This document shows, piece after piece, positions 1 to 32,247 of a DNA stretch of 40,993 nucleotides. Numbering within the stretch: position 1 is the first letter of the stretch; every line of letters starts with the position of its first letter. Under the pieces are notes generated by a model. That model did not search any database. It saw nothing but the letters and a program-made list of their open reading frames with translations, and had not been told where the DNA came from. The stretch comes from a virus (lineage: Duplodnaviria; Heunggongvirae; Uroviricota; Caudoviricetes), in the IMG/VR virus record IMGVR_UViG_2563366956_000009; one strand, 5' to 3'. The position numbers were made by a program, and so were the translations under genes.

Positions 1-146
1 GAGAAGCGGTGTAAGTGAACTGCAGTTGCCATGTTTTACGGCAGTGAGAGCAGAGATAGCGCTGATGTCCGGCGGTGCTTTTGCCGTTACGCACCACCCC
101 GTCAGTAGCTGAACAGGAGGGACAGCTGATAGAAACAGAAGCCACT
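1..146 (-). CDS. insA: IS1 InsA, N-terminal part (partial, runs off window)
   Basis: GTG start 55 nt inside the IS1 end; translation [48 protein letters not shown]. Confidence 0.8.
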
Positions 147-201
147 GGAGCACCTCAAAAACACCATCATACACTAAATCAGTAAGTTGGCAGCATCACC
201 C
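1..201 (-). mobile_element. IS1: IS1 insertion sequence, left end (partial; continues beyond window start)
   Basis: Reverse complement of 1..201 reads GGTGATGCTGCCAACTTACTGAT..., the IS1 terminal inverted repeat followed by the insA leader and coding start, matching IS1 as remembered. Confidence 0.9.
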
Positions 202-357
202 GCCATCTTCAGTAAGTTCTCCGGTTTCTTTGTACACATTACCTATCACGTCAATAAGAATATCATCCTGCATCGACTCGTCATCATAATAGCCAATGCT
301 CTCCATAAAGGCCGAAAAGTCGGCCCTGTCTGCAAATTTGAGTGTTAAATCTTTCAT
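202..357 (-). pseudogene. tail fibre assembly (tfa-like) gene, N-terminal 52 codons only, truncated by IS1
   Basis: ATG overlaps the stf stop (ATGA); translation MKDLTLKFADRADFSAFMESIGYYDDESMQDDILIDVIGNVYKETGELTEDG runs directly into the IS1 terminal repeat at 201. Confidence 0.55.
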
Positions 358-2750
358 TTAATACTCTCCCCCATTTGCGCATCAGTTAATTCTTTATGCC
401 AGAGACGAAGATTTCTCAAATGGCCGAATAGATGACGAGTTCCCGATGTGGCTTGACCTCCAATTCGAATAAAGGTCCGTGTTTTTACGCCCGTCCACTC
501 CGTTTTCATAGTTTTAGTAGCCTCACCGTTAGAAACTACTCGTTTAGTACCATCAGAATAAATATTAAAACCACCAATGAATTTTCGAACATCAGCTCGA
601 CCAGCAAACACACTAGAAACGTAAGTACTTGTCGACGCTTTATAAGTTTGCATATAAAGCTGACCGTAATATTTCTCAGTTGTGTTAAAAGCGTATGTAA
701 TTGACTCAATAGGTGGCACACCAGAAAAATCAAAAATACGCGGTGCTACATTAGGAGGAATATCGCCCCAATTTCTATTAACCTCGACAAGACACGTAAG
801 CGGTCTATTATAGATATTATTTTCAGTTGGGATCGTCACCATATCACTGGAGCGGGTTGCGGGTGCAGTTGTCGTAATAACAAAAGATGAAGCACATCCG
901 CCGTTTTCAAATTGTGGTGTTGCAAGGTAAATATAATCTCCCGCTTCAGTTATACCACCTTTTTTCGGCGCATACTGAATCATTGCGCCAATTAAGGTTT
1001 CACCTTCAACAGCTTCTATAGTTGCCTCATAGAAAATCCACCCTGTAACCGGATCTTTAGTTGCAGTAGCTGCTATTCTATTGGCTGCTCCGCCAGTTTT
1101 TTCTATTATCAGAGTTCCGAAAGTTAAATAAGCATCTCCTAAAAATGTATAAACCGACCCATCGTATTTTTCAAAACGCAAACGACAACGAAGACCATCA
1201 GGAGCTTTAACCCTGCATGAAACAGTGCAATACTTATTATCGCCACAAACATCAATCCCCCGGGATGCACTGCATGTATGCAGACTAAGTGCAGATGATT
1301 GTCCTGTCATATTATCTTTTGTTCGCATTTTGGCATATGAAAAACCAAATTCATCAACACCATTATTAGTTTTATCGATATTGCTGGTACTCGTCCATTC
1401 AGCGGGAGTATTGGATTTAACAAAATAGTTAGTGCGCTGTCCTTCAATCAATAAACCTTCTTTTTCAAATCGTGGCTCATCAATTTTAGCAACACTAAAT
1501 ACGCCTGATTTATTGATATATGTGGCAGTTGATGCGCGTTTAAACTTAACAACCTTGTCGCCAGGCATCGTTATTTCATCATCACCAATAACAATTTTTT
1601 TATATGACGGCGAAAAGCCCGTAATCATATCCAGTGAATCGTTAAACGGTATCCACACATCAGGCAGTGGCTGTAAGACATATTTATACGGCTCTGCTGC
1701 CTGACTTGCATACTCTCTGGCTGCGTCTTCACTTGCTTTAGCTGCTGTCTGGCTTGCTGCCGATGCTTTCGCCGAGTTCGCCGCTGCAGTCTCGCTTGTC
1801 TTTGCATTGGTTTCACTGGTTTTTGCTGCTTTTTGACTGTTGGCTGATGCAGTGGCAGAAGCAGCCGCCGCGCTTGCAGAACCAGCTGCAGCACTCTCGC
1901 TTTGGGCTGCTGCATCCTGACTGTTTTTCGCCGCAGTTTCGCTGGCTTTGGCATTCGTTTCGCTGGTCTTCGCTGCCGTCTGGCTGGACTTTGCGTTAGT
2001 TTCACTCGTCTTCGCAGCTTTCTGGCTGTTAGCCGCAGCAGTTGCTGATCCAGCTGCTGAAGTCGCAGAACCGGCTGCCGCGCTCTCGCTTTGGGCTGCT
2101 GCAACCTGGCTGTTTTTTGCCGCAGTTTCACTGGCTTTGGCATTCGTTTCGCTGGTTTTCGCTGCCGTCTGGCTGGACTTTGCGTTGGTTTCGCTCGTCT
2201 TTGCGGCTGTCTCGCTATTTTTCGCGTTGGTTTCTGATTTTTTGGCTGCTGTCGCGGAGTTTGCCGATGCAGTCTTTGAGGTCGCTGCCGCCTGTGCACT
2301 ATTAGCTGCATTCGTTTCTGAGGTTTTCGCCGCGTTCTTCGATGATGCCGCTGCAGTTTCGGATTTCTTTGCCGCCGCTGCGCTCTGAGAGGCGGCTTCA
2401 GCGTTGCGTGCCGCTTCTTCCACCATTTCCTCAAAACGACGCAATGCCTCCGGCATGACATCATCTTCCGTCATGGCACCGAGAAAATCATTCAGCGTCC
2501 CCGGCTTAGAATCTTCATACACGGTGATGGTCCCGGCATGTGAAGGCGAAAAACCTTCAACCAGCAGGATAACGCTGTACTGGCCATACTCAACATCCAT
2601 ACTGTAACGCCCGGCTTCATCCGGATTTTCTGAGGCCAGCGTGTTCACTACCACCGTGGTGCTGTTACGTTTTGCTTTCAGCTGGATTGAGCAGTTCTGT
2701 ACCGGTTTTCCTGTGCCGTCTTTCAGTACACCTGAAATCTTTACTGCCAT
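354..2750 (-). CDS. stf: side tail fibre protein (lambda Stf-like N-terminus, Ala/Thr/Ser-rich repeat shaft, distinct C-terminal receptor-binding region)
   Basis: 798 aa ORF; N-terminus MAVKISGVLKDGTGKPVQNC...GTITVYEDS matches lambda Stf as remembered; central AAKTSETNAKSSQ repeats; C-terminal ...RHLFGHLRNLRLWHKELTDAQMGE motif. Confidence 0.85.
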   Translation of the reverse strand: MAVKISGVLKDGTGKPVQNCSIQLKAKRNSTTVVVNTLASENPDEAGRYSMDVEYGQYSVILLVEGFSPSHAGTITVYEDSKPGTLNDFLGAMTEDDVMPEALRRFEEMVEEAARNAEAASQSAAAAKKSETAAASSKNAAKTSETNAANSAQAAATSKTASANSATAAKKSETNAKNSETAAKTSETNAKSSQTAAKTSETNAKASETAAKNSQVAAAQSESAAAGSATSAAGSATAAANSQKAAKTSETNAKSSQTAAKTSETNAKASETAAKNSQDAAAQSESAAAGSASAAAASATASANSQKAAKTSETNAKTSETAAANSAKASAASQTAAKASEDAAREYASQAAEPYKYVLQPLPDVWIPFNDSLDMITGFSPSYKKIVIGDDEITMPGDKVVKFKRASTATYINKSGVFSVAKIDEPRFEKEGLLIEGQRTNYFVKSNTPAEWTSTSNIDKTNNGVDEFGFSYAKMRTKDNMTGQSSALSLHTCSASRGIDVCGDNKYCTVSCRVKAPDGLRCRLRFEKYDGSVYTFLGDAYLTFGTLIIEKTGGAANRIAATATKDPVTGWIFYEATIEAVEGETLIGAMIQYAPKKGGITEAGDYIYLATPQFENGGCASSFVITTTAPATRSSDMVTIPTENNIYNRPLTCLVEVNRNWGDIPPNVAPRIFDFSGVPPIESITYAFNTTEKYYGQLYMQTYKASTSTYVSSVFAGRADVRKFIGGFNIYSDGTKRVVSNGEATKTMKTEWTGVKTRTFIRIGGQATSGTRHLFGHLRNLRLWHKELTDAQMGESIK
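1740..2400. repeat. imperfect tandem repeats inside stf (about 189 bp unit, two near-identical copies plus degenerate shorter sub-repeats)
   Basis: The block starting gcactctcgctttgggctgctgca (about 1891) recurs as gcgctctcgctttgggctgctgca (about 2080) with roughly 90 percent identity over more than 130 bp. Confidence 0.6.
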
Positions 2751-2759
2751 ATTCCCCCC

Positions 2760-2800
2760 ACAAAAAAGCCCACCTGAACCGGCGGGCTGTCATAACACTG
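2760..2800 (-). terminator. putative intrinsic terminator downstream of lom
   Basis: Minus-strand hairpin AGCCCGCCGG..GGTGGGCT followed by TTTTTTGTG. Confidence 0.35.
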
Positions 2801-2814
2801 TGTTACCTGGCTAA

Positions 2815-3414
2815 TCAGAATTTATAACCGACACCCACGATGAAACCGTCAGTGCGCCAGTCACCACTGCCAGAACCTTCATAAGCAATATCAATGGCCA
2901 CGGATTCGGTCGGGTTAAACTGCACGCCAGCCCCCCACGCCAGAGACGTGTTGCTGTGGCGACCGTCATCACTTCCGGTCAGCACATCGTGCGTTTTCCC
3001 CTTGTTGTCAGTTACGCGAAGGTAATCCCCGGAAAAAGTCGAAACACGGCTGTAAGCCATACCCGCCATCGCATACGCGCTGAACCATTCATTCACGCGC
3101 ACAGACGGCCCCGCCATCACGCTGAACCAGCGGTTACGCACGGAATCTTCATGCCAGCTGGTATCGCTGTAACGGGTCAGCTGGCGATTCTTGTCTCCTG
3201 CATAGCTGAATGACGTCACCAGCCCCAGCGTATCCGTAAACTCATAACGGTATTTCACGTTAATCCCGTTCAGATCATCACTGCCGGGAACGTTGGTCCG
3301 GGCATGAAGATACCCCGCGCTCAGCGTGGACTGATGTTCAGATGCCCATGCAGGCGCACCGGATACGGCCAGACAAATGGCTGCGGACAAAATGGCGGCA
3401 TAAAGTTTACGCAT
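2815..3414 (-). CDS. lom: outer membrane protein Lom (Ail/Lom family)
   Basis: 199 aa with signal peptide MRKLYAAILSAAICLAVSGAPAWA and C-terminal beta-barrel ending ...GVGYKF; lambda lom position after J. Confidence 0.9.
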   Translation of the reverse strand: MRKLYAAILSAAICLAVSGAPAWASEHQSTLSAGYLHARTNVPGSDDLNGINVKYRYEFTDTLGLVTSFSYAGDKNRQLTRYSDTSWHEDSVRNRWFSVMAGPSVRVNEWFSAYAMAGMAYSRVSTFSGDYLRVTDNKGKTHDVLTGSDDGRHSNTSLAWGAGVQFNPTESVAIDIAYEGSGSGDWRTDGFIVGVGYKF

Positions 3415-3435
3415 AATTACCTCTCGCTTTTCTGC

Positions 3436-3462
3436 AATAAAAAAGGCACCATTTCTGGTGCC
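3436..3462 (-). terminator. intrinsic terminator between J and lom
   Basis: Minus-strand hairpin GGCACCAGAAATGGTGCC followed by TTTTTTATT. Confidence 0.5.
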
Positions 3463-3483
3463 CTTATATGGGTTATAACAATT

Positions 3484-6400
3484 TCAACGAATACTGATGC
3501 CGGAAGCGGCTTTTTTGGTCACAATCACCGTACAGTCGGTGATATTACCTGCCCACTGATTGCCTTTATGGAAAACCTTAAACTCCAGAGTGACGCTTCC
3601 CCTGCCACTCGGCATATCAATAACCGCACTGTAGCTACCGGGAATGGCCCCTTTAGTTTCTCTGGATGCGATTAATACACCGTTTTTGCGAACTTCAAAA
3701 CCATAACCCGTGTATCTTGTACCTCCCGGGTTATTACCACTTCCCGGATCGCTATACGCTATTCCGTTAAAGATAATGGGCGGAATAATGATTTGACGGT
3801 CAAAGTTATGATCATCGCTGATGGTGACTGTAACCGTCCCGTTTGGTGTTTCCGTGTTACCCCACGTACCAGCCTGTTTCGGGAATGATTTGGATACAGC
3901 TTTAACGAAGTCACCTCTGACCTGAGTCGCCTCCAGCATGCCCTTAATCGTACAGTTTTCATTTACCGTGACATTGTTGAGCGTCCCGGCGTTCGCATTC
4001 ACTCTGCCACTGATATCCGCATTTTTAGCGGTCAGCTTTCCGTCTGATGTCAGGGAAAATGCCGGTGGATTTCCACCACTGGTAATGGTCGGGGCCGTCA
4101 GGCGCTTCAGGAACACGTCGTTCATAAATATCTGATTGCCCTGCGCCACAAACATCGGCGTTTCATTCCCGTTTGCCGGGTCAATAAACGCGATACGGTT
4201 AGCGGCAACCAGAAACTGGCTCAGCTTGCCTTCTTCCGTGTCCTCCATGCTGAGGCCAATACCCGCGACATAATGTTTGCCGTCTTTGGTCTGCTCAATT
4301 TTGACGCCCCACATGGCATTCCACTTATCGTTAGCGTCCTGCCACTCTTTCGAAAACTCCTCCAGTCTGCTGGCGTTATCCTCCGTCAGCTCGACTTTTT
4401 CCAGCAGCTCCTTGCCGAGATGGGATTCGGTTATCTGGCCTTTGAAAAAATCCAGGTAACCTTCCGCATCATCGCTCGCCTGACCGACAGCCTCCACGAA
4501 TGCCGATTTGCCAACGGTGTTCACACTGCGGATATAAAAGTAATAATCATGGCCCGGTTTGATATTGATACTGGCGGCTATCCAGTACAGCGCCGTACCA
4601 AGATAGCGGGCTGTGGTTTCAACCTGCCTGATATCGGTAATCCGCTTTTCCGAGAACCAGAACTCAAACTGTACCGTCGGGTCATAAACGGCAAGATGCG
4701 GCGTGGCGGTTATCTGAAAATAGCCCGGCGTCAGCTCAATCCTCGACGGTGCTGCCGGTGCGGCAATCCGGAACGATACCGACGCCGGATCGCCCTGCTG
4801 CCCCCACGCATTTACCGCCCGGACTGTCAGTCTGTAGTTCCCCAGCGCCAGTTGCGTGAAGCGGTATGTGGTTTCCGTCGTCCGGGCCGTGCTGACCAGC
4901 CGCTCACTGCCGTCATCCGCTGTTACGGTCAGACGGAGCAGGAAGCTCACGCCCTTCACCACCTTCGGCGTGTCCCAGCGCGCCAGCACCTGATATTCCC
5001 CGCTGTCTGCGGTGACTTCGGCGGTCAGGTGCTGCACCGCTGGCGGCGTGACACCATTCACCGTGCCGCTCTGGTCGCCGTCAAAGTGCGCCCCGTTATC
5101 CACGATGGCTTCTTTTTCCGGTACATGCTGCACGGCAGTGATGGCATACGTGCCGTCATCGTTCTCACGGATACTCACACAGCGGAACAGGCGCTGACGC
5201 AACGTCGGCAACTTCAGCCCCCACACACTGTATTCTGCAACGCCGTCAGGAACCCGGTTCACTTTCACCTTAAGTCCGTCGGTGACGGACTGAACCTCCA
5301 CGCTGACCGGATTACCACTTCCGTCAACCAGGCTTATCAGCGTGGTACCGGAGGATGGCAGCGTGATTTCACGGTCGAGCGTCAGCGTCCGGGTCTGGCT
5401 GTTCACCGCCAGCACGCGACCACCGGTGCTGATACCGGCATAGTCATCATCGCAGATTTCAATGACATCGCCCGGTACATGGCGAAGCCCTTCAGCACCC
5501 ACGCTGAAATCCACGGTCTGCGTCTCCAGCAGTTCAGTTTTAATCAGCCACAGCCCGGCGCGGTGTGCCTGCCCCCGGCTGGTACAGCCAAAGGCATCCA
5601 TCTTCGTGACATTACGACCGTAACGGACAATGGCCTGCGTATCTTCAACAAGCTCTGTCGCCGTCTCCCAGCCGTTGTTCGGGTCAATCCAGTTCACCTC
5701 AACGGCATTATGGCGGTCCTTCAGGGCGCTGAAGCTGTAGCGGAACGGCGCGCCATCATCCGGCATCACCACATTACTGCGGTTATAGGTCCACACCTTA
5801 TCTGATGGTCGGTCCTGCACGAACGTCAGCGTCTGCCCGTTCCATACCGGCATACAGCGCATCGCCGAGCAGAAATCACTGAGCACATCCCACGCCTTGC
5901 GCTGTGTGGTCAGGTAGGCATTACAGGTGATGCGCGGCTCCGTGCCGCCAAAGCCGTCCGGCACTGACTGGTCGCAGTACTGGCCGATGACATACAGCGC
6001 CCATTTGTCCACATCCGCCGCACCAAGACGTTTCCCCATGCCGTAGCGCGGGTGGGTCAGCATATCCCACAGACACCAGGCCGGGTTGTTGCTGTATGCC
6101 GGCTTAAACGTTCCGTCCCAGATACCGCTGTATTGCCGCGTCTGCGGGTTATAGTTCGACGGCACCTGCAGAATGCGCCCGCGAAGATGATAATTACGGC
6201 TCACCTGCTGGCTGCCGAACTGCTCCGAGTCCACCTGCACGCCGACCAGTGCCGTGTTCGGGTAGCACTGTTTCACATCGATGATTTCGGTGTATGACGA
6301 CCAGAGCGTTTTGTTCTGCAGCTGGTCTGTGGTGCTGTCCGGCGTCATCCTGCGCATCCGGATATTAAACGGGCGCGGCGGCAGGTTACCCACCACCACC

Positions 6401-6897
6401 GAGGCCAGATACTGCGAGGTGGTTTTGCCCTTAATGGTGATGTCTTTTTCCGTCACCCAGCCACCGTTACGTTGTATCTGAACCAGCAGACGGACTTCCG
6501 ACGGATTCCTGTCACCCTTTGAGGTGGTTTCCACCAGTGCCTGTACACCGAAGGTAAAGCGCAGACGGTCGATGTTTGCAGACGTAATGGTGCGGGTGAT
6601 CGGCGTGTCATATTTCACTTCCGTACCCAGCACCGTCTCGGAGCCGGAGGATTCAAACCCCTCCGGCGGTGTCTGCTCCTGCTCACCGGCACGGAACACC
6701 ACCGTGACACCGGAGATGTTGGTATTCCCCTCAGTGTCCAGCACCGGCGTACTGTTCAGCAGCACGCTTTTTAATCCATCCACCGGACCTTCAACCGGCC
6801 CTTCGCTGATGGCATCGATCACACTCAGCAACTGCGTGGACTTCAGGTTGTCCTTCGCTTCGCGCGGGGTATGCCCCTTACTGCTTCCTTTACCCAT
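3484..6897 (-). CDS. J: tail tip / host specificity protein J
   Basis: 1137 aa ORF, N-terminus [24 protein letters not shown] matches lambda J; lambda gene order. Confidence 0.95.
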
Positions 6898-6957
6898 TCC
6901 TCACGCTCCATAAATGACAAAACCGCCCGCAGGCGGTTTCACATAAAACATTTTGCA

Positions 6958-7629
6958 TCAGCGACCAATCACCACAACCTGACCACCGTCCCCTTCGTCT
7001 GCCGTGCTGATCTCCTGAGAAACCACGCGTGACCCCACGCGCATTTCCCCGTACAGAACAGGCAGAACATTGCCCTGGGCAACCATGTTATCCAGTGAGG
7101 AGAAATAGGTGTTCTGCTTACCGTTATCCGTTGTCTGTGTACGGGGAGTTCTGGCTTTCGGTGCCAGCATCTGCGCCACACCACCGAGCACCATACTGGC
7201 ACCGAGAGAAAACAGGATGCCGGTCATACCACCGGCCCCAATGGCTGCCCCCCATGCTGCAAGGGTGGCTCCGGCGGTAAAGAATGATCCGGCAATGGCG
7301 GCAGCCCCCAGGACAATCTGGAATACGCCACCTGACTTGGCCCCGGCGACTCTGGGAACAATATGAATCACAGCGCCATCAGGCAGAGTCTCATGTAACT
7401 GCGCCGTTAACCCGGACGTGCTGACGTCCCGCCCGGCAATCCGTACCTGATACCAGCCGTCGCTCAGTTTCTGACGAAACGCCGGGAGCTGTGTGGCCAG
7501 TGCCCGGATGGCTTCAGCCCCCGTTTTCACACGAAGGTCGATGCGGCGACCAAATCGTTGTAAATCCCCGTAAAGGCAGATGCGCGCCATGCCCGGTGAC
7601 GCCAGAGGGAGTGTGTGCGTCGCTGCCAT
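6958..7629 (-). CDS. I: tail assembly protein I
   Basis: 223 aa, same length and position as lambda I; overlaps K by about 100 nt as in lambda. Confidence 0.9.
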   Translation of the reverse strand: MAATHTLPLASPGMARICLYGDLQRFGRRIDLRVKTGAEAIRALATQLPAFRQKLSDGWYQVRIAGRDVSTSGLTAQLHETLPDGAVIHIVPRVAGAKSGGVFQIVLGAAAIAGSFFTAGATLAAWGAAIGAGGMTGILFSLGASMVLGGVAQMLAPKARTPRTQTTDNGKQNTYFSSLDNMVAQGNVLPVLYGEMRVGSRVVSQEISTADEGDGGQVVVIGR

Positions 7630-8270
7630 TTGTCGGTGTACCTCTCTCGTTTGCTCAGTTGTTCAGGAATATGGTGCAGCAGCTCGCCGTCGCCGCAGTA
7701 AATTGCGGCGTGATTCGGCACCGATGAACCAAAACAGCACAGCAGCACATCGCCCGGCTGTGCCGCTGACAACGGCACCTGATACAGCCCCGTCGCCTCC
7801 AGATTATCCAGATAGAGATTCTGGCCGTTACGCCACCAGTCATCCTCACGATGAAAGTCCGGCATCTCAATCCCCGCCAGATGATAAGCATCCCGGAACA
7901 GTGTGTAACAGTCCGTCACACCGTGCTCAAAGCGCCGCCCGGTGAGATGCGGCACACAGCGGAACTTATGAATCGTCCCCCGGCAGACCAGCCACCACGG
8001 CAAATCACTCTGCACCTGCAGCCGCCGGTCGGCCTCACTCAGCCAGGGCAGGCCACCGGGGTGGCTGTGGACCAGCGCCACAATCTCACCCTGCATTTCT
8101 GCCTGCAGCCAGTCTTCCGGCGACATACGGAAATACGCCTCCGGCTCACCGGAGATATTCACGCAGGGGAAATATCTTTCCCCCTCCGGCGTGCTTACCA
8201 CGAAGCCGCACGACTCCGCTGGCGCACATCGCCGGGCGTGCGCCAGAATCGCTGATTCTGTCTGTGTCAT
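7527..8270 (-). CDS. K: tail tip assembly protein K (JAMM/MPN-like motif plus NlpC/P60-like region)
   Basis: 247 aa ORF MTQTESAILAHARRCAPAESCGF...; HSHPGGLPWLSEAD motif; lambda K position. Classical lambda K is annotated shorter (199 aa). Confidence 0.85.
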   Translation of the reverse strand: MTQTESAILAHARRCAPAESCGFVVSTPEGERYFPCVNISGEPEAYFRMSPEDWLQAEMQGEIVALVHSHPGGLPWLSEADRRLQVQSDLPWWLVCRGTIHKFRCVPHLTGRRFEHGVTDCYTLFRDAYHLAGIEMPDFHREDDWWRNGQNLYLDNLEATGLYQVPLSAAQPGDVLLCCFGSSVPNHAAIYCGDGELLHHIPEQLSKRERYTDKWQRRTHSLWRHRAWRASAFTGIYNDLVAASTFV

Positions 8271-8275
8271 GGGAT

Positions 8276-8974
8276 TTACTGCGAAAGTTTGTTAATGGAA
8301 AGGAAGCCGCCAAAGTTGCCGACGTTATTGCGGAACTTACAACCGCTCAGGCATTTGCTGCATTTATCCTTCGTGATATCGGACGTTGGCTGGTCATATT
8401 CATCCGCGACAGCCGGACCGCTATAACCGCACTCGTCACCGCGATAGGTCCAGGTGCAGGTGTTGGCCAGCATGATACGTCCCGGAAAAACAGCGCCATC
8501 CGTTTCCGTCGGCGTGGACAGTACAAAGGAGGCACTCACCGCGCTCAGTTCGCTGCACTGCTCAATGCGCCAGCGGCTGATCACCTCCTGCTCCGGATCG
8601 GCGTAACTGTTTCCGTTGACGAAGTTCACCGCATCCAGAAAACGGGCGTAAACCTTACGCCGGACCACCGTTCCGCCGACCAGACTCTGCATATCTTCCG
8701 CCATCCCGGTGACCATACCGTACAGGTTAGAAACCGTCAGCGTGGGGCGCGTACTGGTGCCTTTGCCATTCAGTTCAAAACCGCTCCCCTGAATGGGATA
8801 CGGCTGATACTGTCGCCCCTGCCAGGTGACCGGCTCACCTTTTTCGTTCTGCTCATTACAGAAAAAATAACGTTCTCCACCGACCTCTGTCAGGTCGATT
8901 TCCCAGAGCACCACGCTGGCCGACTGCTCCGCACGGGTGCATTCATTCAGTGTTTCCTGCCGGATATCCTGCAT
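8276..8974 (-). CDS. L: minor tail protein L
   Basis: 232 aa, lambda L length and position. Confidence 0.9.
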   Translation of the reverse strand: MQDIRQETLNECTRAEQSASVVLWEIDLTEVGGERYFFCNEQNEKGEPVTWQGRQYQPYPIQGSGFELNGKGTSTRPTLTVSNLYGMVTGMAEDMQSLVGGTVVRRKVYARFLDAVNFVNGNSYADPEQEVISRWRIEQCSELSAVSASFVLSTPTETDGAVFPGRIMLANTCTWTYRGDECGYSGPAVADEYDQPTSDITKDKCSKCLSGCKFRNNVGNFGGFLSINKLSQ

Positions 8975-9303
8975 CAGTTCACCACCTGTTCAAACTCTGC
9001 GCTGAACTCAACACGCAGCATACTGACCCGCGACGACCATTTTGCGCAGGTCACCTTTATCTGCCGCCACTCATAAGGCGGCGTCCACAGAAAGGATTTC
9101 CAGCCCCCGTGCTCTTCCAGAAACGACTCCAGTACCGTGGCCTCCTCACGGGGGACAGAAAGCGTCACGCTGTACGTTTTCAGGTTGGCATTCAGCCCGG
9201 CAGGCGCTCGCTGAGAATAGCCATCACCAAAGCGCACCTTTCTTACAGAAGGGACCGAAGCCACATCCATACCTGGTTTCACTTTCCAGCGGAAGGTCTT
9301 CAT
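8974..9303 (-). CDS. M: minor tail protein M
   Basis: 109 aa, lambda M length and position. Confidence 0.9.
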   Translation of the reverse strand: MKTFRWKVKPGMDVASVPSVRKVRFGDGYSQRAPAGLNANLKTYSVTLSVPREEATVLESFLEEHGGWKSFLWTPPYEWRQIKVTCAKWSSRVSMLRVEFSAEFEQVVN

Positions 9304-11861
9304 CGTCCACCTCCGGAGAACAGGCCACCATCACGCATCTGTGTCTGAATTTCATCACGGGCACCCTTGCGGGCCATGTCATACACCGCCTTCAGAGCAG
9401 CCGGACCTATCTGCCCGTTCGTGCCGTCGTTGTTAATCACCACATGGTTATTCTGCTCAAACGTCCCGGACGCCTGCGACCGGCTGTCTGCCATGCTGCC
9501 CGGTGTACCGACATAACCGCCGGTGGCATAGCCGCGCATCAGCCGGTAAAGATTCCCCACGCCAATCCGGCTGGTTGCCTCCTTCGTGAAGACAAACTCA
9601 CCACGGTGAACAATCCCCGCTGGCTCATATTTGCCGCCGGTTCCCGTAAATCCTCCGGTTGCAAAATGGAATTTCGCCGCAGCGGCCTGAATGGCTGTAC
9701 CGCCTGACGCGGATGCGCCGCCACCAACAGCCCCGCCAATGGCGCTGCCGATACTCCCGACAATCCCCACCATTGCCTGCTTAAGCAGAATTTCTGTCAT
9801 CATGGACAGCACGGAACGGGTGAAGCTGCGCCAGTTCTGCTCACTGCCGGTCAGCATCGCCGCCATATTCTGTGCAATACCATCAAAGGTCTGCGTGGCT
9901 GCACTTTTTACCTGCGACATACTGTCCGTGGCGCTCTCTTCCCACTCACTCCAGCCGGACTTCAGGCCTGCCATCCAGTTCCCGCGAAGCTGGTCTTCAG
10001 CCGCCCAGGTCTTTTTCTGCTCTGACATGACGTTATTCAGCGCCAGCGGATTATCGCCATACTGTTCCTTCAGGCGCTGTTCCGTGGCTTCCCGTTCTGC
10101 CTGCCGGTCAGTCAGCCCCCGGCTTTTCGCATCAATGGCGGCCCGTTTTGCCCGTTGCTGCTGTGCGAATTTATCCGCCTGCTGCGCCAGCGCGTTCAGG
10201 CGCTCCTGATACGTAACCTTGTCGCCAAGTGCAGCCAGCTGGCGTTTGTACTCCAGCGTCTCATCTTTATGCGCCAGCAGGGATTTCTCCTGTGCAGACA
10301 GCTGGCGACGTTGCGCCGCCTCCTCCAGTACCGCGAACTGACTCTCCGCCTTCCACAAATCCCGGCGCTGCTGGCTGATTTTCTCATTTGCTCCGGCATG
10401 CTTCTCCAGCGTCCGGAGTTCTGCCTGAAGCGTCAGCAGGGCAGCATGAGCACTGTCTTCCTGACGATCGCCCGCAGACACCTTCACGCCGGACTGTTTC
10501 GGCTTTTTCAGCGTCGCTTCATAATCCTTTTTCGCCGCCGCCATCAGCGTGTTGTAATCCGCCTGCAGGATTTTCCCGTCTTTCAGTGCCTTGTTCAGTT
10601 CTTCCTGACGGGCGGTATATTTCTCCAGCGGCGTCTGCAGCCGTTCGTAAGCCTTCTGCGCCTCTTCGGTATATTTCAGCCGTGACGCTTCGGTATCGCT
10701 CTGCTGCTGCGCATTTTTGTCCTGTTGAGTCTGCTGCTCAGCCTTCTTTCGGGCGGCTTCAAGCGCAAGACGGGCCTTTTCACGATCATCCCAGTAACGC
10801 GCCCGCGCTTCATCGTTAACAAAATAATCATCCTTGCGCAGATTCCAGATGTCGTCTGCTTTCTTAAACGCAGCCTCTGCCTTAATCAGCATCTCCTGCG
10901 CGGTATCAGGACGACCAATATCCAGCACCGCATCCCACATGGATTTGAATGCCCGCGCAGTCCTGTCTGCCCAGGTCTCCAGCGTGCCCATGTTCTCTTT
11001 CAGGCGGCGGGTCTGGTCATCAAACCCTTTCGTTGCGGCCTCGTTCGCCGCCTGCAATGCCCCGGCTTCATCGCCGGAACGCTGCAACTGAGCAACATAC
11101 GCAATCTGCTCCGCCGTCACGTTATGGAACTGGCGTGCCATCGCCGTCAGCCCCGACGTCGGGTCTGTGGTCAGCTTCCCGAAGGCTTCAGCGACCTTGT
11201 CCACCTCCACGCCGGATGCAGAGGAGAAACGCGCCACACTCTGGCTGATGGACGCAATCTGAGCCTCACCGCTTACCCCCGCCTTAACCAGTGCGCTGAG
11301 TGACTCGCTGGTCTGGTTAAACGTCAGCCCTGCCGCCTGCCCGGCTCTGGACAGGACCAGCATACGATCTGCCGTCAGTCCCGCCTGATTGCCGGAAAGG
11401 ACCAGCGTTTTGTTGAAATCGGACAGGGTTGAGTTGCCCTGATACCAGGCATACGCCAGCGCACCGGTCGCCACCGCCAGCGAGGTGGCCCCCACCATCG
11501 GCAGGGTGATCGCACCGGCAAGCCCCCTGAACATGGGGATCATCCCGCCGAAGGAGTCCTTCACCTGCCCCCCCTGTTGCAGCAGGATCAGCCACGGACT
11601 TTGCCCGCCGGCAAGCTGCGTGGCCACGTCGGTGAACTGTGCAGGCAGCATACGCATGGCGGCTTTATACTGCCCGACGGAAATCCCCGCTTTCTGTGCA
11701 GCCAGCGCCTGTCGGCTCAGCGACTGTTCAACGACTGCCGCTGTTTTTTTCGCATCACTTTCCGTACCGGAAAAATGACGCCTGACTCTGGCCATCTGCT
11801 CGTCAAATCTGGCCGCATCCAGACTCAAATCAACGACCAGATCGCCTACCGGTTCAGCCAT
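9300..11861 (-). CDS. H: tail tape measure protein H
   Basis: 853 aa (lambda H length), coiled-coil-rich, between GT and M. Confidence 0.95.
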   Translation of the reverse strand: MAEPVGDLVVDLSLDAARFDEQMARVRRHFSGTESDAKKTAAVVEQSLSRQALAAQKAGISVGQYKAAMRMLPAQFTDVATQLAGGQSPWLILLQQGGQVKDSFGGMIPMFRGLAGAITLPMVGATSLAVATGALAYAWYQGNSTLSDFNKTLVLSGNQAGLTADRMLVLSRAGQAAGLTFNQTSESLSALVKAGVSGEAQIASISQSVARFSSASGVEVDKVAEAFGKLTTDPTSGLTAMARQFHNVTAEQIAYVAQLQRSGDEAGALQAANEAATKGFDDQTRRLKENMGTLETWADRTARAFKSMWDAVLDIGRPDTAQEMLIKAEAAFKKADDIWNLRKDDYFVNDEARARYWDDREKARLALEAARKKAEQQTQQDKNAQQQSDTEASRLKYTEEAQKAYERLQTPLEKYTARQEELNKALKDGKILQADYNTLMAAAKKDYEATLKKPKQSGVKVSAGDRQEDSAHAALLTLQAELRTLEKHAGANEKISQQRRDLWKAESQFAVLEEAAQRRQLSAQEKSLLAHKDETLEYKRQLAALGDKVTYQERLNALAQQADKFAQQQRAKRAAIDAKSRGLTDRQAEREATEQRLKEQYGDNPLALNNVMSEQKKTWAAEDQLRGNWMAGLKSGWSEWEESATDSMSQVKSAATQTFDGIAQNMAAMLTGSEQNWRSFTRSVLSMMTEILLKQAMVGIVGSIGSAIGGAVGGGASASGGTAIQAAAAKFHFATGGFTGTGGKYEPAGIVHRGEFVFTKEATSRIGVGNLYRLMRGYATGGYVGTPGSMADSRSQASGTFEQNNHVVINNDGTNGQIGPAALKAVYDMARKGARDEIQTQMRDGGLFSGGGR

Positions 11862-22888: not shown

Positions 22889-23299
22889 ATGGATCAGGTA
22901 GTCATTTTTAAACAAATATTTGATAAAGTTCGAAACGATTTAAACTATCAATGGTTTTATTCTGAGCTAAAACGTCACAATGTCTCACATTACATTTACT
23001 ATTTAGCCACAGAGAATGTTCATATTGTATTAAAAAATGATAATACAGTGTTATTAAAGGGCCTAAAAAACATTGTGTCTGTCAAATTTTCAAAGGATAG
23101 GCATCTTATAGAAACGACCTCTAATAAGCTGAAATCCAGAGAGATCACATTTCAGGAATACAGAAGAAACCTTGCTAAAGCAGGAGTTTTTCGGTGGGTT
23201 ACAAATATCCACGAACAAAAAAGATATTACTATACCTTTGATAATTCATTACTATTTACTGAAAGCATCCAGAAAACTACACAGATCTTACCACTCTAA
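22889..23299 (+). CDS. ydfO: DUF1398 family protein (YdfO/YbcV-like)
   Basis: Start at [51 protein letters not shown] (136 aa) with GGAAGG RBS. Confidence 0.7.
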
Positions 23300-23450
23300 A
23301 CCATAACGTCCGGCTTCTCTCACTCCTGAGCCGGACTGCATTGGTTTAATAAAAACCATCAACAATTGTGATTTAGATATTCGGAACCATTCAAATATAA
23401 CAAAACCCCGTAAAAACGAGGTTTATGGATAAATTTTATTATTGAATACA

Positions 23451-23624
23451 TCAGATTAAATTAATCTTGACATCATAGCTTTCAAGACCCGTCATTTTTT
23501 CCCGTGCGGTAAACTGAATACTGGTAACTTCTTTCCCGGTCTTTTTCTTAAGTTCAATAATTTTTTTTGTTATATATTCAGAAATATCTGCTTCTGCTTT
23601 TGTTTTTAAGTTTTCAATATTCAT
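23451..23624 (-). CDS. gnsB: Gns family small protein (GnsB-like, 57 aa)
   Basis: Hand-translated: MNIENLKTKAEADISEYITKKIIELKKKTGKEVTSIQFTAREKMTGLESYDVKINLI, preceded by GAGGAA RBS; below the 60 aa cutoff of the ORF track. Confidence 0.55.
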   Translation of the reverse strand: MNIENLKTKAEADISEYITKKIIELKKKTGKEVTSIQFTAREKMTGLESYDVKINLI

Positions 23625-23795
23625 CATTTCCTCTTTTAGTCTGTTATGACTTTCCAGTTACACAGTAAGTCGATTATATGGTGCAAACGTGTAAAAGATA
23701 AGATGAAACATCGCAATAATCAACATACGATAGTCTAAATTTTACACAAACAGACAAAGAGAATTTTCCTGAATTATCAATGCAATAGCATCAAA

Positions 23796-23951
23796 TCAAC
23801 TCAAGAGCCTTATTGCTGCTTCCAGAATTTCTTCTGAAGTAACATGTCGATCCGCGGCTACATAAATGACTTTATGATCTCCGGTCAGAGATGGAAACCC
23901 TGCGGCCATTACAGTAAGGTGTGTTTTTTCGCCATTTGGATATTCACGCAT
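23796..23951 (-). CDS. small hypothetical protein (YnfN-like, 51 aa if started at MREYPNG)
   Basis: ORF 23796..24068 contains MREYPNGEKTHLTVMAAGFPSLTGDHKVIYVAADRHVTSEEILEAAIRLLS; start uncertain (alternative MKKII start at about 24026). Confidence 0.4.
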   Translation of the reverse strand: MREYPNGEKTHLTVMAAGFPSLTGDHKVIYVAADRHVTSEEILEAAIRLLS

Positions 23952-24297
23952 GATGGTGTTAACTCCAGTCATCGCTGGCACTACCACTGCTGGTTCAGAG
24001 TTAAAAAAAACTATGATTTTTTTCATGATGTTACCGTAGTATGTGAGTACCCATCGAATAGACACCAAGCAAAAAAGCTCCCGAAGGAGCCTTCATTTTC
24101 ACTTTTTTAAATCCAACGACAGACGGCTGGCATTTAAGTATTGTGAAATATTATCAAATGTAATCATCATTGATTTACAAAAGATACATTTTGCCCCGAA
24201 AGGATTCATGTCAGAAACATCAAAAGATGATGTTCTATACTGGGAACCATGACAACACGGGCATCTAAAGTGAATATGGTTTGTAATATTGTCTACC

Positions 24298-24510
24298 TCA
24301 AAGCGCTACTACATGAACAGCGGCAGGACCTTTAGGTCCGTTCTCAATACCAAATTCAACTTCCTGATTCTCAGTTAATGTTTTGAAATCGTTGCTCTGA
24401 ATTGCTGAGAAATGGACAAACACATCTTTGCTGCCATCTTTCGGCGTGATGAAACCAAAACCTTTTTCAGGGTTAAACCATTTCACTAAACCAGTCATTT
24501 TGTTAGACAT
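24298..24510 (-). CDS. cspI: cold shock protein, CspA family (CspI-like)
   Basis: 70 aa [53 protein letters not shown]... with RNP motifs; long AT-rich leader upstream. Confidence 0.8.
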
Positions 24511-24872
24511 AATTATTACCTTTTGAAGAAATTAGCCCTTGGGCAGAATGGTCCGAAAAAAAATATCAGAGAGAAAAACCAACAAGGAAATCTCAAGAGG
24601 TACAAATAATAAAATTATAACAATGACTGCTTCAGATAAATTTGTAACAAACCAGAACACCATTAACGCATGATTAACCACCCATAGCAAGGATTACTTT
24701 TGTAAAGAAAAACACAGCAATGAAAGAATAGCTTTATTTATTAATAAAACGTGTCATTCTGATTAAGACCTTTTATCTTACCCTTAAGATTTCAGGAATT
24801 TTGGCTCATGGAAGAGTCCTTTTTATTTAAATTTTACATTCCGCGATGTAAATGTTCCGATTTAATATTACC

Positions 24873-25896
<1,024 letters not shown>

Positions 25897-25900
<4 letters not shown>

Positions 25901-26208
25901 AGATATTTATGATGAGGACGCTCGTGCTTATTGGCAGGATTTTCAATCTTAAAGGAGTACTGATGCTGCAGATAAGACTCAACTTTTTCTGACAATTTTT
26001 CTGCTACTTCCAGGAAGACTTGCCGGACGCTCCTTCTGGCTGCTGCCTCATAAAACTCCAGCGCAGCTCCTTCAACACGGTCCATGGCGACATCCAGGTC
26101 AAAAATTTCACCGTCAAAGCGTTCTTTGTCCTGTAAGGCTACAGTTACCGTAACTTTATTCTCAAAATTACGGACTCCTTTCACAACCAGTTCATAGTCT
26201 TGAGTCAT
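25897..26208 (-). CDS. ydfR: YdfR-like protein (DUF1327)
   Basis: 103 aa MTQDYELVVKGVRNFENKVTVTVALQDKERFDGEIFDLDVAMDRVEG...; between holin and endolysin as in Qin. Confidence 0.7.
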
Positions 26209-26212
26209 TGGA

Positions 26213-26428
26213 TTACTCTCCTCTCGCAGCCTTACGCCTGTCTTCTTTAATCTTGAAATAAAGATTTGTCAGATACGTCAGCAGGCCAAAAACCAGGCTA
26301 CCCAGCACACCGATTGCAGCCCACTGTGACGGAGTTACTTTATCGAGTAACTGCAATGCCCAGAAACCAGCATTACCCGCCGATGTGCCATAGGCAACAC
26401 CTGTTGTTAACTTATCCATTGATTTCAT
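26213..26428 (-). CDS. class II holin (phage-21 S-type pinholin), dual start motif
   Basis: [71 protein letters not shown]; two TM segments, charged C-terminus, Met1/Met4 dual starts, GAGG RBS. Confidence 0.85.
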
Positions 26429-26647
26429 ATCCTCACCCCGATGTACACGGATGGTGCAATATGTTTGAAAAGCTCGGAGTCTACGGGGTAGTTTTGACAG
26501 CACACGTTGTTCTCAACGGCGCTAAAAAAACATACACATTAAAAATGTGGGTAATTATTTTGAAAGAAAGTCATATATAAAATAATAATACGAGAAATGT
26601 TTTCATATTTAGTGTACTGTATACGGCCATTTATACAGGAAAAGCCT

Positions 26648-26818
26648 ATGTCAGAACGTAAAAACTCAAAATCACGCCGTAATTATCTCGTTAAATGTTC
26701 CTGCCCAAACTGCACCCAAGAGTCAGAACACAGTTTTTCAAGAGTACAAAAAGGTGCCCTTTTGATCTGCCCTCATTGCAACAAAGTATTCCAGACAAAT
26801 CTTAAAGCTGTAGCCTGA
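26648..26818 (+). CDS. small zinc-ribbon protein (CxxC...CxxC), 56 aa
   Basis: MSERKNSKSRRNYLVKCSCPNCTQESEHSFSRVQKGALLICPHCNKVFQTNLKAVA with AGGAAA RBS; antisense to the late transcript. Confidence 0.4.
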   Translation: MSERKNSKSRRNYLVKCSCPNCTQESEHSFSRVQKGALLICPHCNKVFQTNLKAVA

Positions 26819-26872
26819 TTGATTTTATTAGTAACAAGTATTTTTTATATTTTAATAATATATTTAAAGCAG

Positions 26873-26900
26873 ATAATAAAAAACCCGCCTGAGCGGGTTT
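26873..26900 (-). terminator. intrinsic terminator (strong on minus strand, possibly bidirectional)
   Basis: Hairpin ACCCGCCTGAGCGGGT; the minus-strand copy is followed by TTTTTTATTATC. Confidence 0.6.
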
Positions 26901-27181
26901 GAGATTGTGGTGCTTTTTGTGGGAGTCATCCACTTACGCACTTTGTTTTGCCATGCCAGCAGTTAGCTTCTGCTGTAAAACTATTCATGCAGCAAACCTG
27001 CACTTCACCACAATGGTTAGCATACTTTTCCTGATTAAGATTTTGCCAAATATGCTAGCCATTGTTTCATGTATTGGACCTCCTTACTTTTTATTAAAGA
27101 GATCCAATATTCACTACTCTGTCCGTATCTCTACTCAGGCATCAGCCTTCTTCGTTATCGTATACAGACGAGCGATGAATT

Positions 27182-27397
27182 TTAATCAGTAATGATGACA
27201 TTTGCTGCTGCAGGACCTTTAGCACCACTCTCTATAGAGAAGGTAACCTTTTGACCTTCAAATAAGGTTCGATAATTATCATTCTGAATCGCAGAAAAAT
27301 GCACAAACACATCTTTACTACCATCAACAGGAGAAATAAAGCCGAAACCTTTATCAGCGTTAAACCATTTTACTAAACCAGTCATTTTATTTGACAT
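27182..27397 (-). CDS. cspB: cold shock protein CspB
   Basis: 71 aa [71 protein letters not shown]. Confidence 0.9.
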
Positions 27398-27697
27398 TCT
27401 ACATTCCTTAACTTGAGCCTTTCGGCATAAATGGTTTGCATAACAGAAACGACTTCGTACTTAATTGGAGAGACTCAAAGAAGGAATAAGTGAATAACAC
27501 CTGAAATGAGAACTGCTTTAGTAAACTACTTCGTATATCGTCTGTTCTTCAAACCGACGCAATCATTAACGCATAGTTGAACATATGAAGCAATGTTTAT
27601 TTTAGACATCCAGCCATCTTCAACCCCATCAAAAAACTATAGCTTTCTTCAGGAACGTGTGTATAGTGCGCCAAGTTATCAGTATTAAGGAATTTTT

Positions 27698-27910
27698 TTG
27701 TCCCGTAAAATGACAGGAATTGTCAAAACCTTTGACGGCAAAAGCGGCAAGGGTCTTATCACCCCATCCGATGGTCGTATCGATGTCCAGCTTCATGTTT
27801 CAGCGCTCAATCTCCGCGATGCAGAAGAAATTACCACCGGATTACGCGTGGAATTTTGCCGGATAAATGGTCTGCGTGGCCCTTCAGCTGCCAATGTTTA
27901 CCTTTCATGA
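27698..27910 (+). CDS. cspF: cold shock protein CspF-like
   Basis: 70 aa [70 protein letters not shown]; divergent from cspB. Confidence 0.85.
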
Positions 27911-28202
27911 GCTATATTAAAGCTTTAATTTCAGGCCCCATCGGATCACACATGGAGAGTTTTTATGAATAACCCCGTCTGTCTTGATGACTGGTTGATT
28001 GGCTTTAAAAGCTTATGCTGTACTTTGGCCGTAATAGCTCTGCTAATAATATAATAAGCAGACTCATTGTGTTTAGGGACATTGTACTGGAAGAAAACAT
28101 TTTAAACATCAGGCAAATAACCAAGTCACCAGCTAAATAATAAGTTAACAGACATGAGTCCCGGGATGAGATTCAACATTACCATTGCCCCATTTAAAGC
28201 AC

Positions 28203-28237
28203 AAAACCCGCTCATCAGCGGGTTTTCTACTTTTTCT
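28203..28237 (+). terminator. intrinsic terminator after cspF; its complement is a candidate tR' of the late operon
   Basis: Hairpin ACCCGCTCATCAGCGGGT followed by TTTCTACTTTTTCTT; the reverse complement also ends in a T-rich run. Confidence 0.55.
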
Positions 28238-28331
28238 TAACGTCGGGTATACAAAGCCCATCGTTGAAAAAATTTTATCCATATTTTTTGAAAAATGCAA
28301 ACATCATGTCGCCATCTTCAGCAAAAATCAT

Positions 28332-29084
28332 TTATCTCGTCACCTTCCTCAATTGCGCTTCCGCGTATGCTTCTTCCTGCCAGCACTTTGTTACCAGTTT
28401 ACCAATGACGTCCGCATACCCCTTATACCACTGATAATCGGTCAGGTCTGGTACCAGCTTCTGGACATGACGTCGTGCCAGCGTGGTCGGTAAACGACTA
28501 AACCGGTTTCCATTACAACGCCCACAAATCTTATATACCGGTACGCCATGAAACCGGGTTCTTTTTTCATCCAGAACAATCCCTTTACCCTTACACCCTC
28601 TGCACGCTGTGCTGGCTTCGCCCTTACCATGGCAATGCTGACATAGTTCCTTCACCCATTCTTCCTTGATTACAGATTCCCCGCGTCTGTAGTGTTTCAC
28701 CACTTCGCGCAATACATTATAAAATCCCGTACCTGAACAATGCTCACAGCGAGCCTTACTTGCCGCAGACCTGGAGTAATCAGCAAAGGCAAAACTCACG
28801 AGGTAAGGAATAATCTGTAACCGGATTTCTTCACTCAATTTGTTCAATGTCGGGTTATTCAGTGCCATCGCGTAATTTAGCAGGCCTTCAATCGCAAACT
28901 GAGGGTCCTGAACACCAACTTTTGCCAGAAATAAGGCCAACCCAAGTGGTGCTTTCGACTGCACCATCCCCTGCGCTGCCATTACATCCGTAATTGTTAA
29001 ACAACCGGTGCCTGTCGCTGGAGCGTCATCGCTCAATTTTGGAGATTTTGGGGAGTAATATTTTGGTAAGGCTTCAAGGTTCAT
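28332..29084 (-). CDS. quuQ: late gene antiterminator Q (phage-21 Q / QuuQ-like)
   Basis: Start at MNLEALPKYYSPKSPKLSDDAPATG (250 aa); Cys-rich zinc-binding motifs CEHCSGTG, CQHCHGKG, CRGCKGKG; immediately upstream of the late region. Confidence 0.8.
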   Translation of the reverse strand: MNLEALPKYYSPKSPKLSDDAPATGTGCLTITDVMAAQGMVQSKAPLGLALFLAKVGVQDPQFAIEGLLNYAMALNNPTLNKLSEEIRLQIIPYLVSFAFADYSRSAASKARCEHCSGTGFYNVLREVVKHYRRGESVIKEEWVKELCQHCHGKGEASTACRGCKGKGIVLDEKRTRFHGVPVYKICGRCNGNRFSRLPTTLARRHVQKLVPDLTDYQWYKGYADVIGKLVTKCWQEEAYAEAQLRKVTR

Positions 29085-29097
29085 GCTCGTTCTCCAC

Positions 29098-30147
29098 TTA
29101 CGCCAGTACGCCAATTGCCAGCGCGCGATCGATAAAACGAAATATCAGCTCCAGTTGGGAGCCATACTTATCTTCAAATGCCACTGTATCCGTATGCAGC
29201 TCGTTGTGATGCTTTCTGCACAAAGGCAACACAAAGAGATCATGTGCTTTTGTTCCCATTCCGCCCTGCCCGTGACCAATCAGATGATGCGGATCGTCGG
29301 CTGGCATACCGCAGCAAGCACACGGCTGTGTCTTAACCCAACGTGTGTATTTCTCCTTAACCCAGCGGCGACGTTTAGGCAGCTTCATGAAAGATTCCGG
29401 AGACTCTGGATCAACGGTGATGCTTACCACCGTCTTTTCCTGTGGTGATTTTTGTTGCTGGTGGGCGTAAGGCAACGGTGCAAGATTTTTTGTGCGTTGT
29501 TTCAATATGCTGGTGGCGGTCTGCTCTCCCGGTACGATGTCGCTTTCGCGGTACACCGAGCAGATTTTTTCCGCTGGTAATCCCAGCGAACGACGCGATA
29601 CAGCCTCAGGTAGTGCATCCACCACCTGATTGCAGACCGCCCACCAGGATAATTCAGCCAAAGATAATTCCCGCTCCTGCGTACCGCTTATTGCGTGACG
29701 GATGACGTCAATCACCCATGCTGTCAGATTTTGTTGAGCAAGCAGCTCCAGTGATTCCGATGTCTGGTCACGCAGTTGGTTGTCGCAGTGCCAGCACAAC
29801 ACCATTGCGCCGGTACCATAACGGTGAATGACTGTTTCAGTGTGATGGTAATCGCCATTAGGCCACTGGCAGGATGTAACATGACGTAATAGCCAGTCGG
29901 ACAATGCGCCAACGCCGCCAGCAGCACGAATCACCCGTTCGTTACTAAAAAACGGCAGCAATGTTTTGTCTTCCGCCAGCGGCTGGCGAACGGCAGGAAC
30001 GACTCCGGATGGCAGATTACGCATGCTTTTTGGTTCCGGTTCCACCAGCACTCGAGGATTATGAAATATCTGTATGGATTCACGGCCCGGCTTAAGGACC
30101 ACCAGCCCAAGCTCAGGCACCAGAACAGGTCTAAGTAATACCCGCAC
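29098..30147 (-). CDS. ydfU: DUF968 family protein (YdfU-like) with Cys/His HNH-like C-terminal motif
   Basis: C-terminal CACCGMPADDPHHLIGHGQGGMGTKAHDLFVLPLCRKHHNELH; start assigned to the GTG giving 349 aa, uncertain (ATG alternative at about 30024). Confidence 0.65.
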   Translation of the reverse strand: MRVLLRPVLVPELGLVVLKPGRESIQIFHNPRVLVEPEPKSMRNLPSGVVPAVRQPLAEDKTLLPFFSNERVIRAAGGVGALSDWLLRHVTSCQWPNGDYHHTETVIHRYGTGAMVLCWHCDNQLRDQTSESLELLAQQNLTAWVIDVIRHAISGTQERELSLAELSWWAVCNQVVDALPEAVSRRSLGLPAEKICSVYRESDIVPGEQTATSILKQRTKNLAPLPYAHQQQKSPQEKTVVSITVDPESPESFMKLPKRRRWVKEKYTRWVKTQPCACCGMPADDPHHLIGHGQGGMGTKAHDLFVLPLCRKHHNELHTDTVAFEDKYGSQLELIFRFIDRALAIGVLA

Positions 30148-30148
30148 G

Positions 30149-30427
30149 TTACCTCCAGATCCGTTGCTGGAAAGTGCGGGACGCACGTGGTGGGCGTTCG
30201 GAATAAGGCAGCCTGACAGAGATTATCCAGTGCCGATAGTCGAGACTGAGAGCTTTCTTAACCTCGAACCCGCGCCTGCGGTAAGAATGAATCAGCCATT
30301 CGGCCTGTTCTGCAGTGCATGGAGGGTGCCGGAACCATTCAGACTTGAATGCGTGAGAATACCGCCCGTGCGTGCAGGCAAGAACGGGCGAATTATCAGA
30401 ATTGTAATATTTTGCGTTGCGTGCCAT
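30149..30427 (-). CDS. hypothetical protein (92 aa)
   Basis: ORF MARNAKYYNSDNSPVLACTHGRYSHAFKSEWFRHPPCTAEQAEWLIHSYRRRGFEVKK...; its stop abuts the ydfU-like gene with GGAGGT nearby. Confidence 0.45.
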   Translation of the reverse strand: MARNAKYYNSDNSPVLACTHGRYSHAFKSEWFRHPPCTAEQAEWLIHSYRRRGFEVKKALSLDYRHWIISVRLPYSERPPRASRTFQQRIWR

Positions 30428-30493
30428 CGGTTTTCTCCGGTGGCACGGTGTTACTCAGCGGGAGTTCAGCCCCGCGCAAGATTGTAGATGAGT

Positions 30494-30745: not shown

Positions 30746-30871
30746 CAGAATCCTTCCGGATAATTAGCTCTCCCCTTTAAGGGACCATCCCTCTTATCCC
30801 TGCGCGCTACTTAAGTATTTTTGATTCTATTCCGGCACCGTCCAGAACTTCAAATGCGTTGAAAATAAAAA

Positions 30872-32224: not shown

Positions 32225-32247
32225 TGCTTTTTTAAAAGGAGAAATCT

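Follow-up and report, generated by a model that had tools for sequence, protein, structure and literature searches.

The window, that is, the whole stretch of 40,993 nucleotides analysed here, begins inside an IS1 element, and the end of that element abuts a short open reading frame that starts within the stop of a side tail fibre gene (stf). This arrangement raises the question of which gene has been interrupted, what its product might do for the fibre, and whether the element marks the end of a damaged prophage. The reading favoured with high confidence is that of a simple IS1 insertion in an uncharacterised, fibre-linked gene of the phrog_1361 family, a putative cognate fibre accessory factor without kinship to tfa. 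The features on which the argument depends are as follows.

1..200 (-): left end of IS1; 200/200 bases identical to IS1A/IS1B (100%, E 1e-99), as in thousands of E. coli records
1-145 (-): 5' part of insA, within the IS1 left end
about 178-200 (-): IS1 terminal inverted repeat, read directly from the sequence
196..357 (-): truncated small gene, 53 aa; the 5' 55% of a 93-aa phrog_1361 gene
201..209 (-): target-site copy AAGATGGCG, the left copy of a 9-bp duplication that flanks both IS1 ends in three near-identical genomes (L003, L004, L006)
354..357 (-): ATGA overlap of the fibre stop (TGA 356-354) and the small-gene start (ATG 357-355)
354..2750 (-): intact Stf-type side tail fibre gene, 798 aa, stop at 354-356
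2815-3414 (-): lom, from the open reading frame list
3484-6897 (-): J gene, from the open reading frame list

An IS1 insertion in a small gene behind stf

The junction can be placed to the base. The reverse complement of positions 181-200, GGTGATGCTGCCAACTTACT, is the IS1 terminal repeat, and that of positions 178-200 is a terminal inverted repeat starting GGTGATGCTGCCAACTTACTGAT, as in the IS1 family. The last base of IS1 is 200 and the first base outside it is 201. The first-pass annotation had placed the IS1 terminal repeat at 201, and is thus correct to within one base. The truncated reading frame has 52 native codons of its own (202-357); the junction adds a Gly codon (199-201), and the IS1 end supplies a TGA (196-198; junction letters GG-TGA-TG). 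A GGGGGAG Shine-Dalgarno-like run at 367-373 lies about 10 nt upstream of the start codon. The proposal that IS1 truncates a gene directly 3' of stf, translationally coupled to it through the ATGA overlap, after 52 native codons is thus upheld, with the IS1 end matching at 100% over 200/200 bases. The element is oriented in the same direction as phage late gene transcription, and no further copy of IS1 or of the small gene was found within the window.

The complete element, the second copy of the duplication and the 3' half of the gene come from the near-identical genomes only, the window's own scaffold having a gap at this point. Over 10.2 kb, L003, L004 and L006, two of which are complete chromosomes, show 99.6-99.9% identity with the window, and they share its junction exactly. 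IS1 is there a complete 768-bp element (at 10158-10925 in L004) with Zn_ribbon_InsA, HTH_Tnp_IS1 and DDE_Tnp_IS1 gene calls, and AAGATGGCG stands on either side of it as a 9-bp duplication. The 3' 41 codons of the interrupted gene resume in frame after IS1, and in-silico removal of IS1 together with one AAGATGGCG copy restores a 93-aa open reading frame in all three genomes. A 768-bp IS1, a duplication of 8-9 bp and resumption of the frame, which the first-pass annotation had proposed to look for, are therefore all present. In these genomes the event does not differ from simple insertions of IS1A/IS1B in E. coli genes, being alike in its 768 bp, in insA plus insB and in the 9-bp duplication, and it is a textbook simple insertion. 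The arrangement is best explained by transposition of a single IS1 copy into the 282-bp gene directly 3' of stf in this lambda-like E. coli prophage, the element landing between codons 52 and 53 and duplicating 9 bp (AAGATGGCG).

An independent insertion is found in the orthologous 93-aa gene of E. coli FDAARGOS_1250 (NZ_CP069571.1; locus L017, 2780-3700). This 768-bp IS1 follows codon 38, 42 bp closer to the beginning of the gene; it has the same orientation and its own 9-bp duplication, ACGTGATAG; the prophage around it is a decayed remnant adjoining appY. That IS1 has entered one 282-bp gene twice, independently, could be due to a target preference or to selection.

The intact 93-aa gene of E. 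coli 7/2 encodes exactly these 52 native residues at its positions 1-52, and an uninterrupted 93-aa gene occupies the same place in E. coli loci L001 and L002, where RefSeq labels its product a hypothetical protein (WP_000654154.1). The phrog_1361 profile matches the fragment over positions 1-51 of 92 (E 3.6e-23) and the intact protein over its full length, positions 1-92 of 92 (E 3.1e-45). The family is small: in a set of 1.84 billion representative proteins it forms 49 clusters at 50% identity. Across 24 members the protein is acidic (pI 4.05-4.8) and hydrophilic, and no signal peptide or membrane or hydrophobic segment was found in these sequences. No experiment or publication assigning a function to the family was found in the literature searched.

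An AlphaFold2 model of the intact protein, built from 24 sequences, has a mean pLDDT of 86.6 and predicts a beta-alpha-alpha-beta4-alpha domain. Against a library of predicted viral structures, the model matches uncharacterised proteins only; a profile search of all PDB sequences with the small protein returned nothing relevant, and comparison of the fold with known fibre chaperones gave no significant structural match. In the predicted structure, the truncated product keeps strands 1-3 and helices 1-2 and loses strands 4-5 and the last helix. Because two of the five beta-sheet strands and the last helix of the predicted fold are removed, the fragment is very probably inactive.

Association of the small gene with the fibre tip

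In the fibre encoded upstream, a lambda-type N-terminal attachment domain is followed by an Ala/Ser/Thr-rich repeat shaft and then by a distal part containing a carbohydrate-binding-like beta-sandwich domain. PF08400 matches residues 1-131 at E 1.2e-68, which identifies a lambda-type Stf, and the order J, lom, stf is present both in the window and in related loci. NF048003 (GTA_spike_fiber) matches residues 434-634 (E 5.5e-15). A model of the C-terminal 369 residues is confident for about 170 residues only, and this confident part matches CBM4 and CBM30 modules, lectin jelly rolls and the Pa193/E217 fibre proteins. For the last 180 residues, the carbohydrate-binding reading rests on two indirect lines, PF13385 (Laminin_G_3), precomputed on C-terminal fragments of homologues, and the galectin-like description of a 44%-identical homologue, the C-terminus of IrisVonRoten Gp22, which the BASEL authors describe as a protruding galectin-like domain (PMC11990801). 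Part at least of the shared fibre C-terminal region looks carbohydrate-binding.

Several further features of the fibre gene were observed. Within the shaft, window positions 1782-2234 consist of 2.3 tandem copies of a 189-bp repeat (83% matches), within which periods of 42 bp and 21 bp are nested; they encode the Ala/Ser/Thr-rich ...AAKTSETNAKSSQTAAKTSETNAKASETAAKNSQ... stretch of Stf. In some genomes RefSeq splits the fibre gene at this repeat into two overlapping pieces, for example 4154-6214 and 6187-6553 in L001. The 94-aa 'Tail fiber protein' chain of PDB entries 9e7m/9mgh matches the first 94 Stf residues (E 5e-50), so that the N-terminal attachment part of such fibres may already have a solved structure. 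In E. coli EE72d (NZ_CP065136.1; locus L002, 6674-7132), an IS200C copy lies between lom and the fibre gene.

The small gene is linked to this type of fibre well beyond the lambda-like phages. A tblastn search with the small protein identified 181 phage records among lambda-like phages, Drexlerviridae and Dhillonvirus, T5-like and rV5-like phages, and the last 162 residues of the fibre were found in 205 phage records, which cover these taxa as well. In about 24 of these 205 records no small gene was detected at E<=1e-3, which reflects either search sensitivity or real absence; in rV5 itself the small gene is absent and gp41 is followed directly by gp40. The small gene overlaps the fibre stop by 1 or 4 bases in every locus opened, namely those of PhiR49_1, PeterMerian, CarlMeissner, PhiR41_1, IrisVonRoten, phage 21 and two metagenome contigs. 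The fibres of these loci have their C-terminal 160-560 residues in common and differ in their N-terminal scaffolds (PF08400, PF03406 or PF12571). Identities of the small protein and of the fibre C-terminal part move together, at 98/99%, 45/46%, 41/43% and 38/36%, respectively, and even where identity within the small-gene family falls to 32-33%, the gene in front encodes a distant homologue of the same fibre domain. One distant pair of fibres is 24% identical over 374 residues, including a terminal RNLR[IL]W...LTD.Q motif. By these sequence comparisons, the small gene and the C-terminal part of the fibre are inherited as one cassette across at least four unrelated phage groups.

Two relatives illustrate the range of this cassette. 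One is Escherichia phage PhiR49_1 (PV340568.1), which is lambda-like and recorded with E. coli ECOR13 as its host; about 23 kb of its structural genes are 97.6% identical to the window, and its Stf is 99% identical. It has the gene order of the window's lineage, with stf followed by the 93-aa gene, a 234-aa gene, a 97-aa gene and a ybcY-like gene, and differs in that its 93-aa gene is uninterrupted and the phage carries no IS1. IrisVonRoten (Bas32) is lytic and T5-like, whereas the prophage here is temperate and lambda-like. The C-terminus of its proximal fibre is 44% identical to that of this Stf, and the disrupted gene has a 39%-identical counterpart there in Gp23, a homologue that likewise shows an ATGA overlap. 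The downstream fibre protein of IrisVonRoten shares with the 234-aa protein a Peptidase_S74 chaperone domain and an N-terminal motif; it is T-shaped and 574 aa long, against 234 aa here. The publication on the IrisVonRoten lateral fibre module, Gp22-Gp23-Gp24, does not discuss the small protein Gp23 (PMC11990801). In the IrisVonRoten record (MZ501075.1; locus L019, 5465-5743) the 92-aa homologue is bas32_0023, annotated 'tail fiber protein'; the numbering of the proximal fibre varies within the BASEL paper, being Gp22 in the figure legend and Gp23 in the main text (PMC11990801).

Records labelled as Listeria phage (fragments of 1.6-1.8 kb) and as Campylobacter phage also carry this module (for example OR847733.1, MG065652.1 and MG065654.1); these are probably mislabelled or contaminant sequences.

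Readings of the small protein

A small, coupled gene that is inherited together with a fibre tip is the classical mark of a cognate accessory protein of the fibre, as in the Stf-Tfa, H-G, S-U and gp37-gp38 pairs. Since the gene behind stf is small, translationally coupled and co-inherited with the fibre tip, our best guess is that it encodes a cognate fibre accessory factor, one that either helps the fibre to fold or assemble or is itself a small subunit associated with it. Two variants could be distinguished, one an assembly helper absent from virions and the other a small structural connector or cap. A more specific proposal, for and against which the case is about evenly balanced, is that the family forms a new class of fibre accessory protein: acidic, of ~90 aa, with an alpha/beta fold unlike those of Tfa, gp38 and gp57, and the dedicated partner of this fibre C-terminal type, moving with the tip between lambdoid, Drexlerviridae, T5-like and rV5-like phages. 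Such a protein might serve as chaperone, as transient cap or as connector. If this proposal is true, the IS1 insertion described here and that in FDAARGOS_1250 would be natural loss-of-function alleles.

A role as structural connector, in which the small protein joins a distal fibre protein (here the 234-aa Peptidase_S74 protein) to the upstream fibre to give a branched fibre, is rather unlikely. It would suit the position of bas32_0023 in IrisVonRoten, between the proximal fibre Gp22 and the distal T-shaped Gp24 (PMC11990801). In the window's lineage and a T5-like metagenome contig, and probably also in PeterMerian, the small gene is likewise followed by a Peptidase_S74 fibre gene. In phage 21 and PhiR41_1, however, no further fibre gene lies downstream of the pair of fibre and small gene, and the published model joins Gp24 to the proximal fibre while giving the small protein no role (PMC11990801).

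The genes downstream of the disrupted one have features of their own. The 234-aa protein, whose gene lies with the 97-aa gene at 11069-12077 in L004 and 2858-3866 in L001, has a coiled coil and a Peptidase_S74 intramolecular-chaperone domain; in PeterMerian, a gene of similar size at the same position is annotated 'putative lateral tail fiber chaperone'. The 97-aa protein belongs to phrog_1443 and is 97% identical to a 'putative membrane protein' of phage 21.

The 93-aa gene might instead be a passenger behind stf, encoding an immunity, exclusion or anti-defence factor whose loss has no effect on the fibre. Accessory genes are frequent at this position in lambdoid phages, and the next-but-one gene encodes a membrane protein. 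This explanation is nonetheless improbable. The gene is kept in lytic T5-like, rV5-like and Drexlerviridae phages, and presence of the family in strictly lytic phages argues against a lysogeny-specific accessory gene ('moron'). It overlaps the fibre stop in every locus opened, and its divergence follows that of the fibre C-terminal domain. A PADLOC defence-system scan was negative for the small gene, and the acidic, hydrophilic product, without signal peptide or membrane segment, also speaks against a passenger of this kind.

That the reading frame is 'tfa-like', a Tfa-family (lambda Tfa or Caudo_TAP) assembly chaperone cut by IS1, as the first-pass annotation had it, is very improbable. Position alone favours it: like lambda tfa, the gene comes directly after stf, here with an ATGA overlap, and this likeness is a positional analogy only. 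The intact protein has 93 residues against 191 for K-12 TfaQ; the fragment, the full protein and 24 relatives have no Pfam or NCBIfam match at E<=1; and hhalign against K-12 TfaQ gives a probability of 0.09%. The predicted fold of the small protein is not of the Mu gpU/Tfa or T4 gp38 type, and a genuine Tfa remnant is found elsewhere in related loci, adjoining pinQ. Membership in the Tfa family (PF02413, Caudo_TAP) was accordingly rejected, and the small gene has no relationship to Tfa.

The comparison with the lambda Stf-Tfa, Mu S-U and P2 H-G pairs is thus one of arrangement. The systems are alike in gene order, in translational coupling and in cassette-like co-transfer with the fibre's distal domain. 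They differ in that the small protein, at half the size of Tfa, has neither sequence nor predicted-fold similarity to it, and in that the fibre here carries a lectin/CBM-like beta-sandwich domain in its distal part.

The window edge and the consequences of the insertion

The window's own scaffold is KE137066.1 of GCA_000408405.1, which is 100% identical to window positions 1-10200, and in it a run of 270 N begins exactly at the window start. Past this gap, the scaffold resumes within the next fibre-module gene and is identical to L004 over all 8,929 comparable bases. IS1 therefore exits at the window edge only because the draft assembly broke at the repeat. IS1 promotes adjacent deletions, and the element does exit at the window edge, so that it might mark a deletion, an inversion or a truncated prophage end with unrelated DNA beyond; this is very improbable, given that the edge is a run of N in the scaffold itself, that the sequence past the gap stays in the next fibre-module gene at 100% identity to L004, and that in L003, L004 and L006 the duplication is intact and the 3' half of the gene is present. 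A deletion, rearrangement or truncated prophage end at the insertion, as had been suggested from the window alone, is not supported.

In the near-identical genomes, the interrupted gene is followed by the genes for the 234-aa protein, the 97-aa membrane protein and a ybcY-like methyltransferase, and then by ompT, envY, ybcH and nfrA. The fibre end of the prophage there adjoins ompT, envY and nfrA, which is the DLP12 side of the chromosome, whereas the uninterrupted relatives L001 and L002 are located at ydfJ/pinQ, the Qin site. An exact-sequence look-up found the 53-aa truncated product on at least 121 public contigs, including two complete chromosomes (CP164702.1 and OZ039802.1) as well as KE137066.1. 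The exact junction was not found in a one-genome-per-species collection, nor was an identical junction found by megablast against complete RefSeq E. coli genomes.

At the other end of the window, positions 23000-40993 hold early and lysis regions that are Qin-like, with dicA/dicB/dicC, relBE, hokD, ydfU, Q (ydfT), cspB/cspF/cspI, essD-rrrQ-rzpQ and nohA. This region also contains an ISNCY transposase remnant and a frameshifted open reading frame, and many E. coli genomes have regions that match it at 99.9% identity.

Should the small protein be a fibre accessory factor, its loss to IS1 would most likely harm the side fibre and, through it, adsorption or host range. That the prophage cannot assemble its side fibre, as the first-pass annotation proposed, would be one possible outcome. 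The expected defect would be a missing or defective side fibre, leading to slower adsorption or a narrower host range. Lambda-type phages form plaques without side fibres, as illustrated by the stf frameshift of lambda PaPa, and the phage would for this reason be expected to remain viable. Complementation in trans by a second prophage copy is possible, and many E. coli genomes do have the region in two or more copies.

For the window itself, the finding adds a further example of a prophage accessory gene hit by IS1, and the apparent prophage end is an assembly gap. It also corrects an annotation trap, in that a small gene following stf is not automatically tfa. More broadly, a conserved and unstudied small protein goes with a widespread class of side and lateral fibres in phages of E. 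coli and Salmonella, including the easily manipulated BASEL phages. Where host range is to be engineered by swapping such fibres, the small gene probably must move along with the fibre tip.
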